Positions 706-40,135 of a stretch of 51,725 nucleotides of DNA are shown here, one piece after another. The position numbers and the translations under genes are program-made. A model generated the notes under the pieces. It did not search any database, had not been told where the DNA came from, and worked only from the letters and a program-made list of their open reading frames with translations. The first letter of the stretch is position 1. Each line of letters starts with the position of its first letter. Origin of the DNA: an uncultured Alphaproteobacteria bacterium. Lineage in GTDB: Bacteria > Pseudomonadota > Alphaproteobacteria > RF32 > CAG-239. The DNA lies in assembly GCA_905235385.1 (NCBI GenBank), contig CAJOLB010000004.1:6543-58267 (forward strand). Direction: 5' to 3'.

Positions 706-1695
706 ATGTCCGATATTGAAGAAATTATAAAAAATTACTTTCCCGCCGAACATATTGAAAACATTCAAAACCTTGACGGGCGCGTTATTATCACCTTAAT
801 TGACACGCCTGAAAATATGTCGAAAGCTGAAGAATTGAAAAAAGAACTGTTGAAAACAGAAGGTGTTTTAAAAGCAACGGTTATTTTCACACGCAAAAAA
901 GCTTCTCCGACAACACTCGGAATCGAAAAGTGGGATATGAAAAACATCAAACATATTATCGGCGTTGCATCAGGCAAAGGCGGTGTCGGCAAATCAACAA
1001 CTGCTGTTAATCTGGCTTTAGCGCTTTCAAACTTAGGGCAAAAAGTTGCCGTCTTTGATGCGGATATCTACGGTCCTTCGTTGCCGACAATGTTGTCTTT
1101 TGAAAACACCCCGCCTGTTTCTTACGACGGTAAAACATTTGAGCCCTTTGAAAATTTCGGTGTCAAAGCGATATCAATCGGCTCGCTCATTGATCGTGAC
1201 ACACCTCTTATTTGGCGTGGTTCAAAAGCATGCGGCGCTATTGAACAAATGCTCAAAGAAACAAACTGGGGCGAAATTGATGTTATGGTAATAGATATGC
1301 CTCCCGGAACAGGCGATATTCAAATTACTCTTTCTCAACGCATTGACTTTGACGGTGTTGTGATTGTTTCAACCCCTCAAGATATTGCCTTAATTGATGC
1401 GGTCAAAGGCGTAAATATGTTTGAAAAAATAAACGTTAAGATTTTAGGTCTTATCCAAAATATGGCTTATTATGTTTGTCCTGATTGCGGCAAAAAGGCG
1501 TATATATTCGGTGAGAACGGCACAAAAGACACAGCCTCCCGCTTAGGACAGCAATTTTTAGGCGAGATTCCGCTTGATGTTTCCATTCGTGAAAATGCCG
1601 ATGCCGGCACACCTGTTGTGGCCGCAGATCCTGACGGGCCTCAAACAAAAGCCTATGAAGAAATTGCTCAAAAAATCTTAAAAGCGCTGTCATAA
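706..1695 (+). CDS. apbC: Mrp/NBP35-family iron-sulfur cluster carrier ATPase (ApbC)
   Basis: Deviant Walker A motif GKGGVGKST, a CPDCG motif, and an N-terminal DUF59-like region. 329 aa. Confidence 0.85.
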   Translation: MSDIEEIIKNYFPAEHIENIQNLDGRVIITLIDTPENMSKAEELKKELLKTEGVLKATVIFTRKKASPTTLGIEKWDMKNIKHIIGVASGKGGVGKSTTAVNLALALSNLGQKVAVFDADIYGPSLPTMLSFENTPPVSYDGKTFEPFENFGVKAISIGSLIDRDTPLIWRGSKACGAIEQMLKETNWGEIDVMVIDMPPGTGDIQITLSQRIDFDGVVIVSTPQDIALIDAVKGVNMFEKINVKILGLIQNMAYYVCPDCGKKAYIFGENGTKDTASRLGQQFLGEIPLDVSIRENADAGTPVVAADPDGPQTKAYEEIAQKILKALS

Positions 1696-1708
1696 CAGCG
1701 TTTTTTTT
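1684..1708 (+). terminator. Rho-independent terminator after apbC
   Basis: Stem gcgctgt / acagcg with loop cata, followed by T8. Confidence 0.7.
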
Positions 1709-1719
1709 ATATCCGAATC

Positions 1720-1851
1720 GTCAAAGAAAAAGGAACCTTAAATTTTTACGATTCCTTTGAATTAAGTTTATCAAAAATTTATTTAAAAATCAATTAAAAT
1801 GAAATTTCAAAAAGTGTAAAGAAAAAAGGTTCATTTTTTCTTTACACTTTT
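1720..1851. promoter_or_regulatory. Invertible-promoter-like cassette, copy A
   Basis: Inverted repeats gtcaaagaaaaaggaacc (1720-1737) and ggttcattttttctttac (1828-1845). The internal promoter lies on the minus strand: TTGATT (1788-1793 rc), 17-nt spacer, TGaTAAACT (-10 at 1765-1770 rc). It points away from the pilin-like gene at 1866. A perfect 18-bp hairpin (1810-1827 / 1834-1851) lies directly before the RBS. Confidence 0.7.
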
Positions 1852-1865
1852 AAAGGAGAAAACAT

Positions 1866-2453
1866 ATGCAACAAAAAGGTAGAAGTATGGTCGAAATGCT
1901 TGGCGTCTTGGCAATCATTGGCGTTTTATCCGCCGGCGGTTTGGCAGGTTATCATCAAGCTGTTGCAAAGCACCGCTTAAATGTCTGGGGTGAACAGGTT
2001 CAACAAACATTAATGAATTTATACGAACTTTGCAAAGGTGATTCCGAGTGTAATTCTTCTAACAATATTTCTCTGAAAAATATTGTTCCTGAAGGCTTCC
2101 TCAAAAAACCTTACAATAATCGGCTTGGCTATGATATATATGGTAATAGCTGGCAAATGAATCCGCTGGGATTTTCTTTGCGTTTAGGCGGAACGCAATA
2201 TCAACAAAATGAAAATGTCATATCTTTTACCTGCCCTAAACTTCTCGAAATTTTAAAAGAAAGCAGAATTTATCAAATACGCATTTGGTCGCGTTTGGGA
2301 GCGATTTACATTAACTCAACTTCCAACTGTAACGTTTATACCTGTCTGTCTTTTGATGATTTAACAAAAGATAAACTACTCAAAATTTGCGAATCTTTGA
2401 CAAGTGAAGACAATGAAGAAAATGACACGATTTGGTATTTCTATTTTAACTAA
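1866..2453 (+). CDS. Prepilin-type N-terminal domain protein (type IV pilin / pseudopilin-like), paralog A
   Basis: N-terminus MQQKG-RSMVEMLGVLAIIGVLSAGGLAGY has a short basic leader, Gly at -1, Glu at +5 and a hydrophobic helix. RBS aaaggag precedes the ATG. C-terminal Cys motif C-x5-C-x14-C. Confidence 0.7.
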   Translation: MQQKGRSMVEMLGVLAIIGVLSAGGLAGYHQAVAKHRLNVWGEQVQQTLMNLYELCKGDSECNSSNNISLKNIVPEGFLKKPYNNRLGYDIYGNSWQMNPLGFSLRLGGTQYQQNENVISFTCPKLLEILKESRIYQIRIWSRLGAIYINSTSNCNVYTCLSFDDLTKDKLLKICESLTSEDNEENDTIWYFYFN

Positions 2454-2486
2454 AAAAAATCCCCTCGTTTGAGGGGATTTTTATTT
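2453..2486. terminator. Bidirectional terminator between pilin-like gene A and clpX
   Basis: A-run, stem atcccctc / gaggggat with loop gttt, then a T-run. Confidence 0.7.
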
Positions 2487-17024: not shown

Positions 17025-19679
17025 ATGAGTAAATGGGTTTATAAATTTGGTAATGGCAGCGCTGAAGGCGACGCTTCCATGAGAAATCTTTTGGGCGGTA
17101 AGGGTGCAAACTTGGCTGAAATGAACAAAGTCGGCCTTCCCGTTCCTCCCGGATTTACCGTTACGACAGAAGTCTGCACATACTACTATGCAAACAACAA
17201 CACATATCCGTCTGATTTAAAAGATCAGGTTCGTGAAGCTGTTAAGGGTGTTGAAAACATTATGGGCAAAAAGTTCGCTGATGAACAAAATCCGCTTTTG
17301 TTCTCAGTTCGTTCAGGCGCCCGTGTTTCAATGCCCGGTATGATGGACACGGTTTTGAACCTCGGTTTGAATGATGAAACGGTTAAAGCTTTGGCAAAAG
17401 CATCAGGATCAGAAAGATTTGCTTACGACTCTTATCGTCGTTTCCTTCAAATGTTCTCAGATGTTGTTTTGGGTGCAGACTTAGATTTGTACGAAGAAGC
17501 ATTAGAGAATATGAAAAAGGCTCATGGCTATAAATCTGACACAGACTTGACAGCTGATGATTTGAAAGAACTCGTTGCTCAATATAAAGCAATCGGTCAA
17601 AAAATCGGCAAGGTCGTTCCTCAAGATCCTTGGGAACAACTTTGGGCAGGTATTGGTGCCGTGTTTGGTTCTTGGATGTCTCAACGCGCCATCACATACC
17701 GTAAATTAAACAACATCCCCGGTGACTGGGGCACAGCCGTTAACGTTCAAACAATGGTCTTCGGTAATGCCGGTGATGATTGCGCAACAGGTGTTTGCTT
17801 CTCTCGTGACCCTGCAACAGGTGAAAACAGATATTATGGTGAATACCTTGTTAATGCTCAAGGTGAAGACGTTGTTGCCGGTATCCGCACACCTCAACCG
17901 ATGGGCTCAATCGGCGACGGCACATCTTTGGAAGAAAGATGGCCTCACCTTTATAAAGAGCTTGTTGATGCTCGTAACAATCTTGAAGCTCACTACAAAG
18001 ACATGCAAGATATGGAATTCACCATTGAACACGGCAAACTTTGGATGCTCCAATGCCGTAACGGTAAGAGAACAGCAGCCGCTGCCGTTCGTATGGCTGT
18101 TGAAATGGTTGAAGAAGGATTGCTCAATCATGAAGAAGCCATCATGCGTGTCGGTGCTGATCAATTAGACCAATTGTTGCACCCGATGCTTGATCCGAAA
18201 GCCAAGAAAAACGTTATTGCAACAGGCTTGCCTGCATCTCCCGGTGCCGCTGTCGGTCGTGCCGTATTCAGTGCAGAAGATGCTGAAGCATGGGCTGCCA
18301 AAGGCGAAAAAGTTATCTTGATCCGCAATGAAACATCTCCTGAAGACATCGGCGGTATGCACGCATCTCAAGGCGTGATTACAGCTCGTGGCGGTATGAC
18401 ATCTCACGCAGCCGTTGTTGCTCGCGGTATGGGCACACCTTGCGTTTCCGGTTCTACAGACATCACCATTGATGTTAAAGCTAAAACAATGAACACGAAA
18501 GCCGGCGTTTTGATTAAAGAAGGCGATTGGGTATCTTTAGATGGTGCCAAAGGTCAAATCATTGAAGGTCAAATCCCGACCGTTCAAGCTGACACAAATT
18601 CAGGCAACTTCGGTAAACTCATGGGTTGGGTTGATCAAATCCGCCGCTTGAAAGTTCGCGCAAATGCCGAAACACCGAAAGATGCCGCACAGGCTTTGGC
18701 ATTCGGTGCTGAAGGTATCGGCTTGGCCAGAACGGAACACATGTTCTTTGATGCAAACAGAATTGCTGATATGCGTGCCATGATTTTGGCTGACAACGAA
18801 AAAGGTCGAAGAGAGGCTTTGGCTCGCTTGCTCCCATATCAAAAGCAAGACTTCAAAGATTTGTTCAAAATCATGAACGGCTTACCGGTTACAATCCGCT
18901 TGCTCGATCCTCCGCTTCACGAATTTTTGCCTCACACAGATCCTGAAATGCAAGAACTTGCTGATAAATTAGGCAAAACTTTGGCTGAAGTGAAAGCTCG
19001 TTCAAATGCTTTGCACGAATTAAACCCGATGCTCGGTCACCGTGGTTGCCGTTTGCCGATCACATATCCTGAAATTGCCGAGATGCAAGCTCGTGCTATT
19101 TTGGAAGCTGCTATCGAATCAGAACAGGAAGGCATTAAAGTTATTCCTGAAATCGAAGTTCCTTTGACAGGTTCTAAGAAAGAATTGGATATTGTTAAGG
19201 CCTTGATTGATACAACGGCTGAAAAAGTCTTTGCTGAAAAAGGCAAGAAGATTGATTACATCGTTGGAACGATGATTGAATTGCCTCGTGCTGCTTTGAT
19301 GGCTGAAGAGCTCGCTCAAAGCGCTGCTTTCTTTGGCTTCGGCACAAACGACTTAACACAAACAACACTCGGTATGAGCCGTGATGACACAGGCGCCATT
19401 TTGGAAGAATACCGCGCACGTGGTGTTTATGTCGCTGATCCGTTTGCATCTATTGATGTTGAAGGCGTCGGTAAACTTGTCAGACGCGCTTGCGTTGAGG
19501 GCAGAAAGGTTAACCCTGATATTCACCTCGGCGTTTGCGGCGAACATGGTGGCGATCCGAAATCAATCGAATTCTTTGAAGAAGTCGGTTTAGATTATGT
19601 TTCTTGCTCACCATTCCGCGTGCCTGTCGCTCGTTTGGCAGCTGCTCAAGCCGCTGTTAAGGCAAAAGCAAAGAAATAA
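17025..19679 (+). CDS. ppdK: Pyruvate, phosphate dikinase
   Basis: 884 aa. ATP-grasp N-terminus, phosphohistidine segment GGMTSHAAVVARGMG, and a PEP-utilising C-terminal TIM-barrel domain. Confidence 0.97.
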   Translation: MSKWVYKFGNGSAEGDASMRNLLGGKGANLAEMNKVGLPVPPGFTVTTEVCTYYYANNNTYPSDLKDQVREAVKGVENIMGKKFADEQNPLLFSVRSGARVSMPGMMDTVLNLGLNDETVKALAKASGSERFAYDSYRRFLQMFSDVVLGADLDLYEEALENMKKAHGYKSDTDLTADDLKELVAQYKAIGQKIGKVVPQDPWEQLWAGIGAVFGSWMSQRAITYRKLNNIPGDWGTAVNVQTMVFGNAGDDCATGVCFSRDPATGENRYYGEYLVNAQGEDVVAGIRTPQPMGSIGDGTSLEERWPHLYKELVDARNNLEAHYKDMQDMEFTIEHGKLWMLQCRNGKRTAAAAVRMAVEMVEEGLLNHEEAIMRVGADQLDQLLHPMLDPKAKKNVIATGLPASPGAAVGRAVFSAEDAEAWAAKGEKVILIRNETSPEDIGGMHASQGVITARGGMTSHAAVVARGMGTPCVSGSTDITIDVKAKTMNTKAGVLIKEGDWVSLDGAKGQIIEGQIPTVQADTNSGNFGKLMGWVDQIRRLKVRANAETPKDAAQALAFGAEGIGLARTEHMFFDANRIADMRAMILADNEKGRREALARLLPYQKQDFKDLFKIMNGLPVTIRLLDPPLHEFLPHTDPEMQELADKLGKTLAEVKARSNALHELNPMLGHRGCRLPITYPEIAEMQARAILEAAIESEQEGIKVIPEIEVPLTGSKKELDIVKALIDTTAEKVFAEKGKKIDYIVGTMIELPRAALMAEELAQSAAFFGFGTNDLTQTTLGMSRDDTGAILEEYRARGVYVADPFASIDVEGVGKLVRRACVEGRKVNPDIHLGVCGEHGGDPKSIEFFEEVGLDYVSCSPFRVPVARLAAAQAAVKAKAKK

Positions 19680-19799: not shown

Positions 19800-19931
19800 G
19801 TAAAGAAATAACCAACCTTTTTTCTTTACACTTTTTAAAATTTCATTTTAATTGATTCTTAAGGAAAATTTTGATATGCTGATACAAAAGGAATCGTAAA
19901 AATTTAAGGTTCCTTTTTTCTTTACACTTTT
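19800..19931. promoter_or_regulatory. Invertible-promoter-like cassette, copy B (orphan)
   Basis: Inverted repeats gtaaagaaataaccaacc (19800-19817) and ggttccttttttctttac (19908-19925). The promoter is on the plus strand: TTGATT 19852-19857, 17-nt spacer, TGaTATGCT (-10 at 19875-19880). No pilin-like gene is adjacent. Confidence 0.7.
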
Positions 19932-20005: not shown

Positions 20006-20530
20006 ATGCTTGGTCGCTATACTTATACCTTGAGTACATTAACCCCCGATGAAGAAATTATTTTAGTCGGTCGGTTGCACTATTTTGCTTTAATCATTCC
20101 CTTTTTCTTAACTGTCACAACTTTCGTATCTTTGTTCTTTTCTATCGGATTTACAATTCAATTAAAAGGTGGAAATATTTTAGATTCGATGAAGATTTTT
20201 GCATGCTGGGCCGTCACATTGACCGTTTTTACCTGCACAATCGTTTCTTGGCTAACGCGCAATTTTATTGAAATGGTTTGCACCAGCAAACGTGTTGTCA
20301 AGCGCACCGGTATTATTAATGTTACAACCGAAGAGCTTAATCGTGAGAGAATCGAATCGGTTGAAATGCGTCAAAGCATATTCGGTCGTTTGTTTAATTA
20401 CGGCGATATTTTCTTTTCAGGCACCGGCACATCAAAATTGATTTTTCACTTTATCAACCAACCGAAACTGATGAAACAGATTATTGATGCGGTGATCAGT
20501 TCACCTCAACAACAGCCTGATGAACACTAA
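20006..20530 (+). CDS. Bacterial PH-domain (bPH_2, YdbS/YdbT-like) membrane protein
   Basis: Several N-terminal TM helices, then the segment VVKRTGIINVTTEELNRERIESVEMRQSIFGRLFNYGDI typical of bPH_2. Confidence 0.65.
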   Translation: MLGRYTYTLSTLTPDEEIILVGRLHYFALIIPFFLTVTTFVSLFFSIGFTIQLKGGNILDSMKIFACWAVTLTVFTCTIVSWLTRNFIEMVCTSKRVVKRTGIINVTTEELNRERIESVEMRQSIFGRLFNYGDIFFSGTGTSKLIFHFINQPKLMKQIIDAVISSPQQQPDEH

Positions 20531-26330: not shown

Positions 26331-26951
26331 TTATTTCCGCCACCAAAATTTCAAGCTAACAGATGTGGTGTCATTTTGACTGTGGAAATTGCACATTTCA
26401 AAAATTTTCTGTGTATTTAAATTTCTGATTTTTGAACAACTTTGACAACAACGATCGCCATAATATTGTTTTAGGCGCCTGTTTTCAGATGATGCTGCGG
26501 ATATTGTTTCAAAATAACACAATTCGGAGGCCCACTCTTTTGCTATTGTAAAAATATTTTGGCATTCTCTTAAGGCTGCCTCATTATCATCTTTCAGAGA
26601 AGATAAACTGATATGTAAAACAATATCTTCTGCCGTACTTGGCGAAACCCAGACACGGTTTTTGAAATCATCATACCAATATGTTCCGCTTTCATTTTGA
26701 ATCATTCCTTCCGGAACACTGTGCAACTTTTTAAGTATGTTCATCATACTTGTTTGATTTAAGCCGTATAAATCATTTTGATATTTTGTAATCCCCAGAA
26801 GCAGTTCGTTAATTTGTTCCATTTGTTTATTGAGTTTATGCTGAAACATCGCCTTTGAATAACCTGCTAAAGCACCGACGGATAAGATGCCGATGATGGC
26901 TAAGACGCCAAGCATTTCAACCATACTTCTGCCTCTTTGATTTATTTTCAT
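26331..26951 (-). CDS. Prepilin-type N-terminal domain protein (pilin-like), paralog C
   Basis: MKINQRG-RSMVEMLGVLAIIGILSVGALAGY, with RBS aaggag 7 nt upstream of ATG 26949-26951. The track's N-terminal extension (MLTQSRDD...) starts at a TTG and lies in the conserved non-coding leader. Confidence 0.7.
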   Translation of the reverse strand: MKINQRGRSMVEMLGVLAIIGILSVGALAGYSKAMFQHKLNKQMEQINELLLGITKYQNDLYGLNQTSMMNILKKLHSVPEGMIQNESGTYWYDDFKNRVWVSPSTAEDIVLHISLSSLKDDNEAALRECQNIFTIAKEWASELCYFETISAASSENRRLKQYYGDRCCQSCSKIRNLNTQKIFEMCNFHSQNDTTSVSLKFWWRK

Positions 26952-26969: not shown

Positions 26970-27006
26970 GTCATCCCTCGATTGCGTCAGCAATCGTCAA
27001 GGGATC
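26970..27006 (-). promoter_or_regulatory. Conserved bulged leader hairpin (copy C)
   Basis: The mRNA sense strand reads GAUCCCU-UGA-CGAUUGC-UGAC-GCAAUCG-AGGGAU. It lies between the cassette and the RBS. Confidence 0.55.
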
Positions 27007-27022
27007 TTCAAATTTTTAAACC

Positions 27023-27154
27023 GTAAAGAAATAACCAACCTTTTTTCTTTACACTTTTTAAAATTTCATTTTAATTGATTCTTAAGGAAAATTTTGATAG
27101 GATTAAATAAAAGGAATCGTAAAAATTTAAGGTTCCTTTTTTCTTTACACTTTT
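27023..27154. promoter_or_regulatory. Invertible-promoter-like cassette, copy C
   Basis: Inverted repeats at 27023-27040 and 27131-27148. The promoter is on the plus strand: TTGATT 27075-27080, 17-nt spacer, TGaTAGGAT (-10 at 27098-27103). It points away from pilin-like gene C. Confidence 0.75.
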
Positions 27155-35400: not shown

Positions 35401-37947
35401 ATGGATTTGGTAAACAAAAAGATAACAAAGTCAAGAAAAATGAAAGATATCGTTTCGAGTGCAATTACAATTACTTTTGAACCTTTTGAAAAAATGCCGG
35501 AAACATTAACCGACTTTTTGGATTCTTATTTTGAGGTTGCCGCCCTCAATTATACTGATGACGGTCAAGAGCAATATGTCGGTTATGCCTCTCTTTCTTT
35601 TAATGAGCAAGATTTAATTTCAGCCTCTAAAAAAGCAAACATCAAATTGCCCTTTTATCAAATTGAAATTTTAAAAAACAAAAATTGGCTTACCGAAAAC
35701 GTTATCAAATTTCCTCCGCAAGAAGTTGCTGATTTTTGCGTATACGGTATCCATGAAAAAAAGACACCGAAGACCAAAAAGATTCCGATTCAAGTCTATG
35801 CCGCAACGGCTTTCGGTTCGACACACCAAACGACGCATATGTGCTTAAACGCAATAACGGATTTAGCTCATATCGGCTTTAAACCGCAGCATATTTTAGA
35901 TGTCGGCACGGGATCCGGTGTTTTATCTATTGCTACGGCAAAAAAATGGAAGAACTTAAAGCCGCATATTTTAGGTGTTGATATTGATCGCGAATCGGTC
36001 AATGTTGCCGGTCAAAATGTTTTTGATAACAACGTTCAAAACATGGTTGATATTTTTTACAGCAACGGTTTTAGCTCAAAACATGTCAAAGAACGCGCCC
36101 CGTATGATTTAATTTTAGCAAATATCTTGGCGCGTCCTCTGATTTCAATGGCTAAAGATATGGCTCTTTCTTGCCGAGTAAACGCTTATGTTGTTTTATC
36201 AGGTTTTAACACCGAACAAGAGGATTGGGTTTTAAACGCTTATCAAAAAGTCGGTTTTAAACTTATTAAACTATATCAAAAAGATCACTGGAGGGCAGCT
36301 TTGCTTGAAAAGAAAGAAACACTTTCAGATCTTCAAAAAAAGCTTCAAAAAAGCGAGGCAATTTTTATTGAACGCAATAATATGTTTTTAGGCGAAGACA
36401 TTTTACCTCAAGAAAACAAAATTCTTGAACTTTCAGGTTTTACCGGATCGGCAGGCATGATGCTCATCACCTCAAATAAGGCTTTTCTCTTTGTTGACGG
36501 GCGCTATTCGATCCAAGCGCGCAAAGAAGCATTCAAAGGCATAGAAGTTATTGATGCCCAAAATTTTTATGCCGACATCATTGATTTGTTTAAGAAAAAC
36601 AAACTCAAAAAACTGATTTTTAACCCGTGGAGTGTTTCAAAACTCATCTCCGGTTTCTTTCAAAAACAAAATATTGTTATATCACCTTCCCTTGAAGCGC
36701 CGATATCATCACTTTCAGAGCCTCAAAAAGTTTTCAAACACCCTAAAAAATATGCAGGACTTTCTTCAAAAGAAAAATGCGCGGCTGTTGTTAAATCTTT
36801 TCCCAAAGGTTTTGATGCTCTTTTAATCACATCTGCTGCCGAATTGTCGTGGCTTTCAAATCTGCGTGCTGTTGATTTGCCCGAAACGCCTGTCTTGCGT
36901 GCTTACGGATTGCTTAAAAAAGACGGTTCATTAAAAGTTTATGCCTTTAATAAAGTGCAAACCTTGATAAAAGACCTCCGAAAATGCGGCAAAGTGATGG
37001 CTGATTTTGCCCAAACACCGCTTGCACTCTTTGATTGTTCATCTCATATGGAAGATGTTTCTTTTAACGCTTTGCGCCTTCTTAAACTTCAAAAGAACCC
37101 GACCGAGCTTCAAGGCTTTATAAATACGCACATTAAAGACGGTGTTTCACTTGTAAAGTTTTTTGCATTTCTTGAACAAAACTATCAAGGCTTAACCGAG
37201 CTTGATGTTGTTCAAAAGCTTCATGATTTCAGAGCTCACGGCAAAGATTATTTTTCCGAAAGTTTCGGAACTATTGCCGCCATCGGCTCGAATGCGGCGA
37301 TTGTTCATTATCAGCCGACCTTAAAGACAAATAAAAAGTTTTCAAAAAACGGTATTTTGCTTTTAGACAGCGGCGCTCAATATTTTGACGGCACGACCGA
37401 CATCACGCGCACCATCTCTTTCGGACATATCAAAGATGAAATTAAAAAAGATTTCACGCTTGTCTTAAAAGCGCATATCGCACTTGCCTCTCATATTTTC
37501 AAAAAAGGCACATCGGCAAACAAGCTGGATCAAATCTGCCGCAATGTTTTACAACATGAAAATAAAGATTTCAAACACGGCACGGGCCATAGTGTCGGGC
37601 ATTTTTCAAACGTTCACGAACCGCCTTTTTCCATCAGTCCAAAGAACACGATGCCCGTTTTGGAAAATTATATCACATCTATTGAACCCGGTTATTATCT
37701 TGAAAACGCTTACGGCATACGCATTGAAAACTTGGTTTATACAGCACCCACCGCAAAAAAAGGCTATCTGCGATTTGAGCCTTTAACGCTTTGTCCGATA
37801 GATTTAACCTTAATTAAGTTTAAGCTTTTAACAAAAACCGAAAAAGATTGGCTCAACCAGTATCACCAAAAAGTTTTCACCGCTTTGGAACCGTTTTTAA
37901 GCAAGCAAGAAAAACTTTGGCTAAAAGAAAAATGTCGGAAGATATAA
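35401..37947 (+). CDS. Fusion protein: ribosomal protein L11 methyltransferase (PrmA)-like N-terminal half plus Xaa-Pro aminopeptidase (M24B, PepP)-like C-terminal half
   Basis: N-terminal half has FGSTHQTTHMCL and DVGTGSGVLSI (PrmA). C-terminal half has SGFTGSAGMMLIT...FVDGRY (creatinase_N) and HGTGHSVGHFSNVHEPP (M24B). There is no stop at the junction near 36300-36330. Confidence 0.7.
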   Translation: MDLVNKKITKSRKMKDIVSSAITITFEPFEKMPETLTDFLDSYFEVAALNYTDDGQEQYVGYASLSFNEQDLISASKKANIKLPFYQIEILKNKNWLTENVIKFPPQEVADFCVYGIHEKKTPKTKKIPIQVYAATAFGSTHQTTHMCLNAITDLAHIGFKPQHILDVGTGSGVLSIATAKKWKNLKPHILGVDIDRESVNVAGQNVFDNNVQNMVDIFYSNGFSSKHVKERAPYDLILANILARPLISMAKDMALSCRVNAYVVLSGFNTEQEDWVLNAYQKVGFKLIKLYQKDHWRAALLEKKETLSDLQKKLQKSEAIFIERNNMFLGEDILPQENKILELSGFTGSAGMMLITSNKAFLFVDGRYSIQARKEAFKGIEVIDAQNFYADIIDLFKKNKLKKLIFNPWSVSKLISGFFQKQNIVISPSLEAPISSLSEPQKVFKHPKKYAGLSSKEKCAAVVKSFPKGFDALLITSAAELSWLSNLRAVDLPETPVLRAYGLLKKDGSLKVYAFNKVQTLIKDLRKCGKVMADFAQTPLALFDCSSHMEDVSFNALRLLKLQKNPTELQGFINTHIKDGVSLVKFFAFLEQNYQGLTELDVVQKLHDFRAHGKDYFSESFGTIAAIGSNAAIVHYQPTLKTNKKFSKNGILLLDSGAQYFDGTTDITRTISFGHIKDEIKKDFTLVLKAHIALASHIFKKGTSANKLDQICRNVLQHENKDFKHGTGHSVGHFSNVHEPPFSISPKNTMPVLENYITSIEPGYYLENAYGIRIENLVYTAPTAKKGYLRFEPLTLCPIDLTLIKFKLLTKTEKDWLNQYHQKVFTALEPFLSKQEKLWLKEKCRKI

Positions 37948-39236: not shown

Positions 39237-39271
39237 AAAAAAACGAATCGGAATTCCGATTCGTTTTTTTT
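39237..39271. terminator. Bidirectional terminator between rplQ and pilin-like gene D
   Basis: A-run, stem aacgaatcgg / ccgattcgtt, then T8. Confidence 0.8.
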
Positions 39272-39932
39272 AATCTTTAACCCAATCACCAGTTTGATGC
39301 ATCGCTACTCCACACACTTGGTCTCTACAGGTCCTTTCGCAAATATCCAATTTCTCATCCATTGTCAAACTTTCTGCTTTCGGATCTCTTTTGGAACAAT
39401 AGTCTCCACATACAGTTTTCCATGCAAAAGTTTGTGTTGAATTATGAAAATACATGTAATCTGTATTCGCAGCATCAATAAAAAAGTTGATGTATTCAAC
39501 GCAAAGTTCAACGCGGTTTTCTCCTTTTAACGAAACAACTATTCCGATAATTTTTTGAACTGTTGGTGAATTATATCTTACTTCTATTTCGTTTTTCCAA
39601 GCATCTAATACCTTATTTTTTTGTATCATATTTTTTGGGAAAATTCCCATTTTGATTGCCATACTTGTTGTGAAGGTATCAACATCTGTCTTCCCATATA
39701 AAGCTGATGACAAATTCATCCATGCTTGGCTGAAGTTATTGAAAAATTGGTTTCTTTTGTGCTTTTCCATAGCCTTGTTAAAACCTGCTAATGCCCCAAC
39801 ACTTAAAATGCCGATAATCGCCAAAACCCCGAGCATCTCAACCATACTTCTTCCTAAAGATGTCATCCCTCGTTTTTGCATTGCAAAAACGTCAAGGGAT
39901 CTTCTGTTTTTTTTATCTATTCTTCTTTTCAT
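39270..39932 (-). CDS. Prepilin-type N-terminal domain protein (pilin-like), paralog D, with an extended leader
   Basis: The GRSMVEMLGVLAIIGILSVGALAGF core is preceded by a 33-aa basic leader if ATG 39930-39932 (RBS aaggag) is the start. An alternative start is MQKRG at 39879-39881. Confidence 0.65.
   Translation of the reverse strand: MKRRIDKKNRRSLDVFAMQKRGMTSLGRSMVEMLGVLAIIGILSVGALAGFNKAMEKHKRNQFFNNFSQAWMNLSSALYGKTDVDTFTTSMAIKMGIFPKNMIQKNKVLDAWKNEIEVRYNSPTVQKIIGIVVSLKGENRVELCVEYINFFIDAANTDYMYFHNSTQTFAWKTVCGDYCSKRDPKAESLTMDEKLDICERTCRDQVCGVAMHQTGDWVKD
39862..39901 (-). promoter_or_regulatory. Second copy of the bulged leader hairpin, inside the 5' coding leader of paralog D
   Basis: GAUCCCU-UGA-CGUUUUUGC-AAU-GCAAAAACG-AGGGAU. 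The outer stem and bulge match the other copies. The inner stem has a different sequence but still pairs. Confidence 0.5.
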
Positions 39933-39950: not shown

Positions 39951-39987
39951 GTCATCCCTCGATTGCGTCAGCAATCGTCAAAGGATC
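39951..39987 (-). promoter_or_regulatory. Conserved bulged leader hairpin (copy D1)
   Basis: Nearly identical to 26970-27006 and in the same position relative to the RBS. Confidence 0.55.
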
Positions 39988-40003: not shown

Positions 40004-40135
40004 GTAAAGAAAAAACGAACCTTAAATTTTTACGATTCCTTTTGTATCAGCATATCAAAATTTTCCTTAAGAATCAATTAAAATGAAATTTCAAAAAGTG
40101 TAAAAAAAATAGGTTCCTTTTTTCTTTACACTTTT
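40004..40135. promoter_or_regulatory. Invertible-promoter-like cassette, copy D (interior flipped relative to copy C)
   Basis: Inverted repeats gtaaagaaaaaacgaacc (40004-40021) and ggttccttttttctttac (40112-40129). The promoter is on the minus strand: TTGATT at 40072-40077 rc, 17-nt spacer, TGaTATGCT (-10 at 40049-40054 rc). It points toward pilin-like gene D. Confidence 0.75.

Follow-up and report, generated by a model that had tools for sequence, protein, structure and literature searches.

The window, i.e. the whole stretch of 51,725 nucleotides analysed here, carries three genes for small prepilin-like proteins (copies 1-3), each preceded by a short cassette of the invertible-promoter type (Table 1). 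In all three proteins the leader ends in Gly at position -1, which is followed by RSMVE, and the motif common to the three open reading frames can be written as G/RSMVEMLGVLAIIG(V/I)LS, with the slash at the predicted cleavage point. Alignment of the proteins gives an invariant block, GRSMVEMLGVLAIIG.LS.G.LAG, and a basic stretch is found right after it (AKHRLN, FQHKLNK and EKHKRN). The first 40 mature residues are 60-72% identical among the three proteins, while the heads, of about 150 residues, share just 20-24% identity; six Cys are present in each mature protein, and the C-terminal patterns CNVYTC..KIC, CCQSC..EMC and CGDYC..DIC were all verified. The first-pass annotation of this DNA, which had described an almost identical N-terminus, a strong downstream divergence with retained Cys patterns, and Gly, Arg and Glu at positions -1, +1 and +5, was thus correct on each of these points. 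The residue at +1 is Arg in all three proteins, instead of the hydrophobic residue (Phe, Met, Leu, Val etc.) looked for in a prepilin signal, and Arg at this position is not known for any characterised prepilin. The leader has 5 residues in copy 1 and 7 in copy 2; only in copy 3, with 27, does it reach the length of a long type IVb leader (about 13-30 residues).

Copy 1 is a self-contained single-gene unit, since one terminator-like hairpin directly follows the gene itself and another lies after the gene upstream of it. The mRNA leader of copy 2 contains a bulged hairpin, and further copies of it accompany copy 3, one of them within the coding leader. A search of Rfam gave no match at the cassettes or at the leader hairpins, and only one tRNA. 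Elsewhere in the window, at 35401-37947, an 848-aa gene (in L119) combines a Pfam PrmA-type methyltransferase and a Xaa-Pro aminopeptidase (Peptidase_M24) in one product, which is consistent with a fusion.

Table 1. Pilin-like genes, switch cassettes and associated features of the window, with candidate invertase and assembly genes on other contigs (C numbers) of the same genome.
Feature	Location	Strand	Details
Pilin-like gene, copy 1	1866-2453	+	195 aa; ORF call
Leader of copy 1	codon 1878-1880	+	MQQKG; predicted cleavage after Gly5; mature N-terminus Arg
Pilin-like gene, copy 2	26331-26951	-	206 aa; ORF call, HMMs, alignment
Leader of copy 2	codon 26933-26931	-	MKINQRG; predicted cleavage after Gly7
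Pilin-like gene, copy 3	39270-39932	-	220 aa; ORF call, alignment, cassette analysis
Leader of copy 3	codon 39854-39852	-	27 residues; predicted cleavage after Gly27
Terminator-like hairpin	2455-2482		directly after copy 1
Terminator-like hairpin	1680-1705		after the gene upstream of copy 1
Bulged hairpin	26970-27006	-	GATCC(C/T)TTGACG..CGAGGGATGAC; mRNA leader of copy 2
Bulged hairpin, further copies	39951-39987; 39862-39901	-	the latter within the coding leader of copy 3
Cassette of copy 1	1720-1845		distal site 1720-1749, proximal site 1816-1845
Cores, copy 1 cassette	1734-1735; 1830-1831		distal AA, left half degenerate; proximal TT
Promoter, copy 1 cassette	1793 to 1765	-	TTGATT-17-TAAACT; points away from gene
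Cassette of copy 2	27023-27148		proximal site 27023-27052, distal site 27119-27148
Promoter, copy 2 cassette	27075-27103	+	points away from gene
Cassette of copy 3	40004-40129		proximal site 40004-40033, distal site 40100-40129
Promoter, copy 3 cassette	40077 to 40049	-	TTGATT-17-TATGCT; points toward gene
Orphan fourth cassette	19800-19925		no pilin gene
Promoter, orphan cassette	19852-19880	+	
Serine recombinase (candidate invertase)	C48:12707-13315		202 aa; beside dnaA
A24 prepilin peptidase	C17:14736-15431		231 aa; Peptidase_A24, 62.5 bits
PilO-family (PAP_PilO) protein, 533-aa protein, T2SSE ATPase, T2SSF platform	C9		one operon; ATPase 549 aa, platform 371 aa
Lipoprotein secretin, PilN type IVb family	C24		cut by contig end; TIGR02520, E 4e-59
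TcpQ-domain protein	C24		adjoins the secretin gene
PilT-like ATPase	C11		

When searched singly, the three proteins remain mostly below the cut-offs of the pilin families. PF07963 (N_methyl, cut-off 21.2) scores 17.0, 19.7 and 13.4 bits for copies 1-3, and TIGR02532 (cut-off 16.3) gives 14.9 bits for copy 1 and 16.9 bits for copy 2 and does not match the third protein, the value of copy 2 being the only one of the three above the threshold; other N-terminal matches of the three, to prepilin-peptidase-dependent proteins and to GspH, are low-scoring, and Pfam PilS and Bundlin gave no match for the window proteins themselves. At the level of family profiles, however, a relationship to bundlin and PilS emerges. 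A profile of 62 homologs, compared with the sequences of the PDB, matches bundlin (1zwt) over the head with an E-value of 8e-5 and TcpA with an E-value of 0.03; in the bundlin alignment both conserved Cys, the invariant C123 and C175 (at least 90% conserved), pair with the two Cys of bundlin. Some homologs pass the Pfam thresholds for Bundlin, PilS or TcpA, and those for PilS and Bundlin are passed by shorter paralogs with an identical N-terminus in the same genome (C5:8122-8592 and others on C53, C32, C79, C58 and C60). An hhalign comparison of the heads only, between the Cys-rich subfamily and the relatives annotated as PilS or Bundlin, gave 97.7% probability and an E-value of 1.5e-12 over 136 columns, the segments compared still retaining some 20 residues from the end of the helix. 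On the strength of these profiles the window proteins are homologous to type IVb pilins, and their C-terminal Cys pair, which forms a putative disulfide bond, is conserved as in that group.

The AlphaFold model of copy 1 (pLDDT 87, pTM 0.80) consists of a helix of about 50 residues (7-56) followed by an alpha/beta head of strands and two helices; a model of the head only reaches a pLDDT of 89 and a pTM of 0.85. The overall shape and the long N-terminal helix are pilin-like, but when both models, full and head-only, were compared with the PDB by Foldseek, there was no match with E <= 0.001 and no pilin among the top 50, and the matches returned were weak and spurious only. The modelled shape fits a pilin, although the head may have diverged strongly. 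Taken with Gly at -1, Glu at +5 and the type IVb homology, the long helix bears out the original description of the proteins as prepilin-like with a class III signal, whereas the HMM and structure checks proposed with that description answer in its favour for the family profile and the general shape, and not for the individual scores or the fold comparison.

The first-pass annotation had also stated that pilus machinery is missing from the window. This holds for the whole contig of the window, on which no PilB, PilC, PilD or PilQ homologs were found, but not for the genome, where matches to T2SSE, T2SSF, Peptidase_A24 and Secretin all lie on other contigs. The lack of a prepilin peptidase or of an assembly system in the genome had been named as the main finding that would speak against pilins; instead, the genome encodes both, on contigs C17, C9, C24 and C11. 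The A24 peptidase is the only one in the genome, both Asp motifs can be recognised in it (EIDER..LPD and GGGDIKLL), and no methyltransferase domain was detected. The families of its members place the machinery with the type IVb pilus systems, those of the R64/Bfp/Tcp kind. On C24:1-8600 the secretin and TcpQ genes stand back to back with genes for two TrbC/VirB2-like pilins and a VirB4 ATPase, and a VirB11-like ATPase is encoded on C21.

The source assembly (1.33 Mb in 89 contigs, 39% G+C, 98% complete) shows that the three genes belong to a larger set than the family of three originally described. A six-frame scan of the whole assembly found 14 open reading frames or fragments with the shared N-terminus, and a Pfam PilS search of the same genome added pilins with altered N-termini (GRSMIEVL on C79 and GRTMIETI on C2) as well as C-terminal pilin fragments at contig ends; at least 15 type IVb pilin-like genes are thus predicted in this genome. 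Beyond it, a protein search gave 6250 matches and a genome scan 563 confirmed relatives, whose titled records are almost all metagenome-assembled genomes of Alphaproteobacteria, uncultured and from gut, faeces or rumen ('Proteobacteria bacterium CAG:495', UBA3773, and RUG and RGIG bins are examples); this origin of the relatives supports the host-associated setting suspected from the window.

The processing site is strongly conserved in this family. The residues G, R, S, M, V and E from -1 to +5 are invariant in the 62 aligned homologs, a count biased by the choice of candidates through shared words; Gly followed by RSMVE is present in 115 of 120 among the matches listed, and Arg +1 in every one of the 14 genomic copies as well as in 116 of 120 among the homologs listed. 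Pairwise comparison of the 25 N-terminal codons in 11 genomic paralogs gave 598 codon differences that are synonymous and 134 that are non-synonymous. This excess of synonymous differences indicates that the shared N-terminus is under purifying selection, and the abundance of synonymous differences rules out recent gene conversion or DNA copying as its source.

Each cassette in front of a window pilin gene contains two 30-bp imperfect palindromes of 14+2+14 architecture, with the core dinucleotide AA at the gene-distal and TT at the proximal site, and the spacing from core to core is exactly 96 bp in all four cassettes of the window. Between its cores, copy 3 shows exactly the reverse complement of what copies 1 and 2 have there, and the inner half-sites of copy 3 are exchanged exactly between its two sites; as far as the sequence goes, this exchange matches the product expected of cutting at the central dinucleotides. 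Among the window pilin genes the promoter points toward the gene only in copy 3, and it points away in five more pilin-linked cassettes (on C1, C3, C5, C22 and C44), both orientations being known from the comparison of paralogous loci and not within a single locus. The claim that each gene stands behind its own invertible promoter is accordingly matched by an anatomy found three times, once inverted with respect to the other two.

The cassette promoter agrees with 8 of 12 consensus positions and was not called by a strict sigma-70 promoter scan. Despite this modest match, the hexamers are kept in all cassette copies, about 16 of which are found genome-wide, and TTGAyT-17-TAnnnT is conserved across both cassette classes. 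Because the hexamers are kept, and because the second class reads TTGACT-17-TATGAT, the orientation facing the gene is here called ON, although this assignment is an interpretation of the sequence. In the orphan cassette the promoter points toward a 174-aa membrane-protein gene (20006-20530), which may therefore have become phase-variable.

The second cassette class is homologous to the first and has the stronger promoter. Its members (C12:12350-12483, C17:8982-9102, C25:2275-2393, C39:21438-21529, C57:7154-7253 and C20:7-100) adjoin genes whose products are small, secreted YD-repeat proteins, the one on C17 matching TIGR01643 with an E-value of 7e-14; the C39 cassette sits between two divergent genes of this kind, which suggests a toggle. 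A cassette of the pilin type with a diverged promoter region (C11:346-478) precedes a 373-aa non-pilin gene (511-1632). In other genomes, a search for exact 11-mer inverted repeats upstream of about 95 homologous pilin genes, which misses imperfect sites such as those of the window cassettes, flagged 14 genes, about 6 of them with extended repeats (L040, L046, L051, L071, L076 and L080).

The hallmark of serine invertases such as Hin and Gin is a palindromic site built around a 2-bp AA/TT core, and the genome encodes an intact enzyme of this type on C48. It has Resolvase and HTH domains and the catalytic YxRVST motif, and it lies outside any mobile-element context. It matches NF009949, 'master DNA invertase Mpi family', over positions 1-197 with an E-value of 3.7e-74 and 248.8 bits, slightly below the NCBIfam cut-off of 272; its best PDB sequence matches, 4m6f and 3uj3, are chains deposited as DNA-invertase. 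An ortholog with 98% identity is present in the congener G005, which carries the most similar cassettes. The site architecture and this co-occurrence make the Mpi-family protein the likely flipping enzyme. The only other recombinases of the genome are two Xer-like tyrosine enzymes (on C9 and C5), a large serine recombinase of 559 aa and a fragment; the XerC/D-like enzymes were considered for the same role and ranked below the serine invertase, because an AA/TT core of 2 bp and paired half-sites, as found in the cassettes, are typical of serine invertases.

In independent assemblies, from up to four samples, an alternative orientation was not seen at any of the three loci, an assembly reporting the majority orientation only; assemblies that encode exactly the same proteins give OFF, OFF and ON for copies 1-3, as in the window. 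In two assemblies, three contigs (L118, L121 and L122) break within or beside a cassette, possibly on account of the repeat, of heterogeneity or of both. The strain is present in the samples ERZ28573638, ERZ27234816, ERZ1667847 and ERR3525316.

The set of genes itself differs between related genomes. In a congener (L096, G005:C167) a 757-bp unit of pilin gene plus cassette occupies a site that is empty in the source genome, where the matching position, C54:6409-6554, holds 145 unrelated bp between flanks of about 91% identity. At C5:18817-19724 a pilin pseudogene lies behind an intact cassette: its truncated pilin (18978-19190) has the same 27-residue leader as copy 3 and stops after 30 mature residues, the rest of the head being a separate open reading frame. 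On C20 a C-terminal pilin remnant is found next to a solo site. The empty site, the truncated pilin, the remnant and the orphan cassette indicate that the pilin repertoire is being reshaped quickly.

The most probable reading of these data is that the window genes code for alternative, phase-variable subunits of a type IVb pilus, each behind its own invertible promoter. It starts from the observed sequence anatomy, the type IVb pilin homology, the machinery and invertase genes and the one inverted paralogous cassette, and from these we infer the following course of cleavage, assembly and switching. The single A24 peptidase would cut the class III signal after the conserved Gly, leaving Arg as the first mature residue, and the hydrophobic N-terminal helix with Glu5 would be fed into a filament built by the products of the PilO/ATPase/platform operon, which would leave the cell by way of the PilN-type lipoprotein secretin and its partner TcpQ. 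Differing surface or adhesive properties would result from the divergent heads with their many Cys. Expression would be set gene by gene through the 96-bp invertible promoter cassette, which the Mpi-family invertase would flip by cutting at the central AA/TT of the two 30-bp sites. In the present assembly copy 3 would be ON, and copies 1 and 2 together with five other cassette-linked pilin genes OFF.

A different reading, which we consider rather unlikely, sees in the cassettes the fossils of past inversions that no longer switch: expression of copy 3 would be permanent, that of copies 1 and 2 would be absent or due to other promoters, and the repertoire would change through gene gain and loss and not through phase variation. 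The constant orientation of each locus across assemblies from several samples agrees with it, and so do the degenerate left site of copy 1, the pilin-plus-cassette unit of the congener at a site empty in the source genome, the pseudogene and the orphan cassette. Yet the site architecture and the 96-bp spacing are exactly kept in many copies, the Mpi-family invertase is intact with its YxRVST motif, the constancy concerns the majority orientation that assemblies give, and contigs of two assemblies break inside cassettes.

Two other readings concern the nature of the proteins themselves. That they are pseudopilins of a type II secretion-like piston, instead of surface-fibre subunits, would agree with the weak GspH-like N-terminal matches and with the best NCBIfam matches of the ATPase and the platform, GspE and GspF, both of which fall far below the cut-off. 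It is nevertheless quite improbable, given the homology of the heads to bundlin, PilS and TcpA, and at least 15 variable, singly switched paralogs are not expected of such a piston; type II secretion was ruled out as the main reading because the PilO, PilN-family secretin and TcpQ markers are of type IVb, to which the PilT-like ATPase also points. It is more improbable still that the N-terminus is an uncleaved signal anchor, tethering to the membrane periplasmic or surface proteins unrelated to filaments. The unusual Arg +1, the N_methyl scores under the cut-off and the missing structural match to pilins in Foldseek could be so explained; against this, strong purifying selection keeps Gly -1 and Glu +5 invariant, and a prepilin peptidase and assembly genes are retained in a reduced genome of 1.33 Mb. 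Moreover, according to published mutagenesis of the Pseudomonas pilin, prepilin peptidases reportedly tolerate many residues at +1 and require Gly at -1.

The phase-variable type IVb reading can be set beside several known systems. With bundlin (BfpA) of enteropathogenic Escherichia coli, TcpA of Vibrio cholerae and PilS of Salmonella Typhi and plasmid R64, the window family shares Gly -1, Glu +5, the long N-terminal helix, a profile-homologous head with a conserved Cys pair that aligns to that of bundlin, and the company of PilO, a PilN-type lipoprotein secretin, TcpQ and an A24 peptidase. It differs from these pilins by the invariant Arg +1, by leaders of 5-7 residues in two of the three proteins, by the extra Cys (six per mature protein), by scores under the Pfam PilS and Bundlin thresholds and by a model that finds no Foldseek match; moreover, its genes are single and scattered among housekeeping genes, outside the pilus operon.

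As to the switches, the strategy resembles that of Mpi and the invertible polysaccharide promoters of Bacteroides fragilis, where, as here, one Mpi-family serine invertase (NF009949) goes together with many short promoter cassettes dispersed before paralogous surface-structure genes and mostly OFF in the consensus. Here, however, the organism is an alphaproteobacterium, pilins and YD-repeat proteins take the place of capsules as targets, the sites are 30-bp palindromes of 14+2+14 with an AA/TT core, and the invertase scores slightly under the curated cut-off; the Bacteroides switches are also longer than the segment of about 96 bp found here. The R64 (IncI1) thin pilus with its PilV shufflon is similar in that a PilN/PilO type IVb pilus is combined with site-specific recombination that changes which pilin-like variant is produced, and in the present genome the secretin genes adjoin type IV secretion genes. 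In the shufflon, the Rci tyrosine recombinase swaps C-terminal coding segments of one gene, whereas here promoter inversion, probably the work of a serine invertase, would switch whole genes. DNA rearrangement also changes the expressed type IV pilin in Moraxella (Piv inversion) and Neisseria (pilE/pilS); in these a type IVa coding sequence is rearranged by inversion or gene conversion, while in the window every type IVb-like gene is complete and has a promoter switch to itself. Full-text literature searches turned up no account of the motif, nor of pilins combined with Mpi or invertible promoters in Alphaproteobacteria.

A more speculative extension, which at present seems doubtful, is that the system could be a chromosomal counterpart of the IncI/R64 thin pilus. 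A partner-binding subunit would be picked from at least a dozen genes by Mpi-type flips, and the pilus would be coupled to the type IV secretion genes (TrbC/VirB2 and VirB4) on C24, so that a reduced-genome, possibly partner-dependent bacterium might choose the bacterial or host cells for attachment or exchange; Arg +1 would stand in for the usual hydrophobic, N-methylated residue as the partner of Glu5 in the core of the filament, matching a peptidase without a methyltransferase domain.

Small-genome, uncultured Alphaproteobacteria are widespread in gut and rumen, and the pilin family bears on how they attach to hosts or partners. On the phase-variable reading, this lineage would keep a complete type IVb pilus and devote many genes to variable subunits controlled by Bacteroides-style switches, and the Mpi 'master invertase' strategy would be in use outside the Bacteroidota. 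The invariant Arg +1, together with a confidently modelled head that has no structural match, makes the family a good target for studies on the substrate rules of prepilin peptidases and on pilin folds. The variable subunits point to surface variation, whether in relation to immunity, phages or the choice of partners, as central to the lifestyle of these bacteria.
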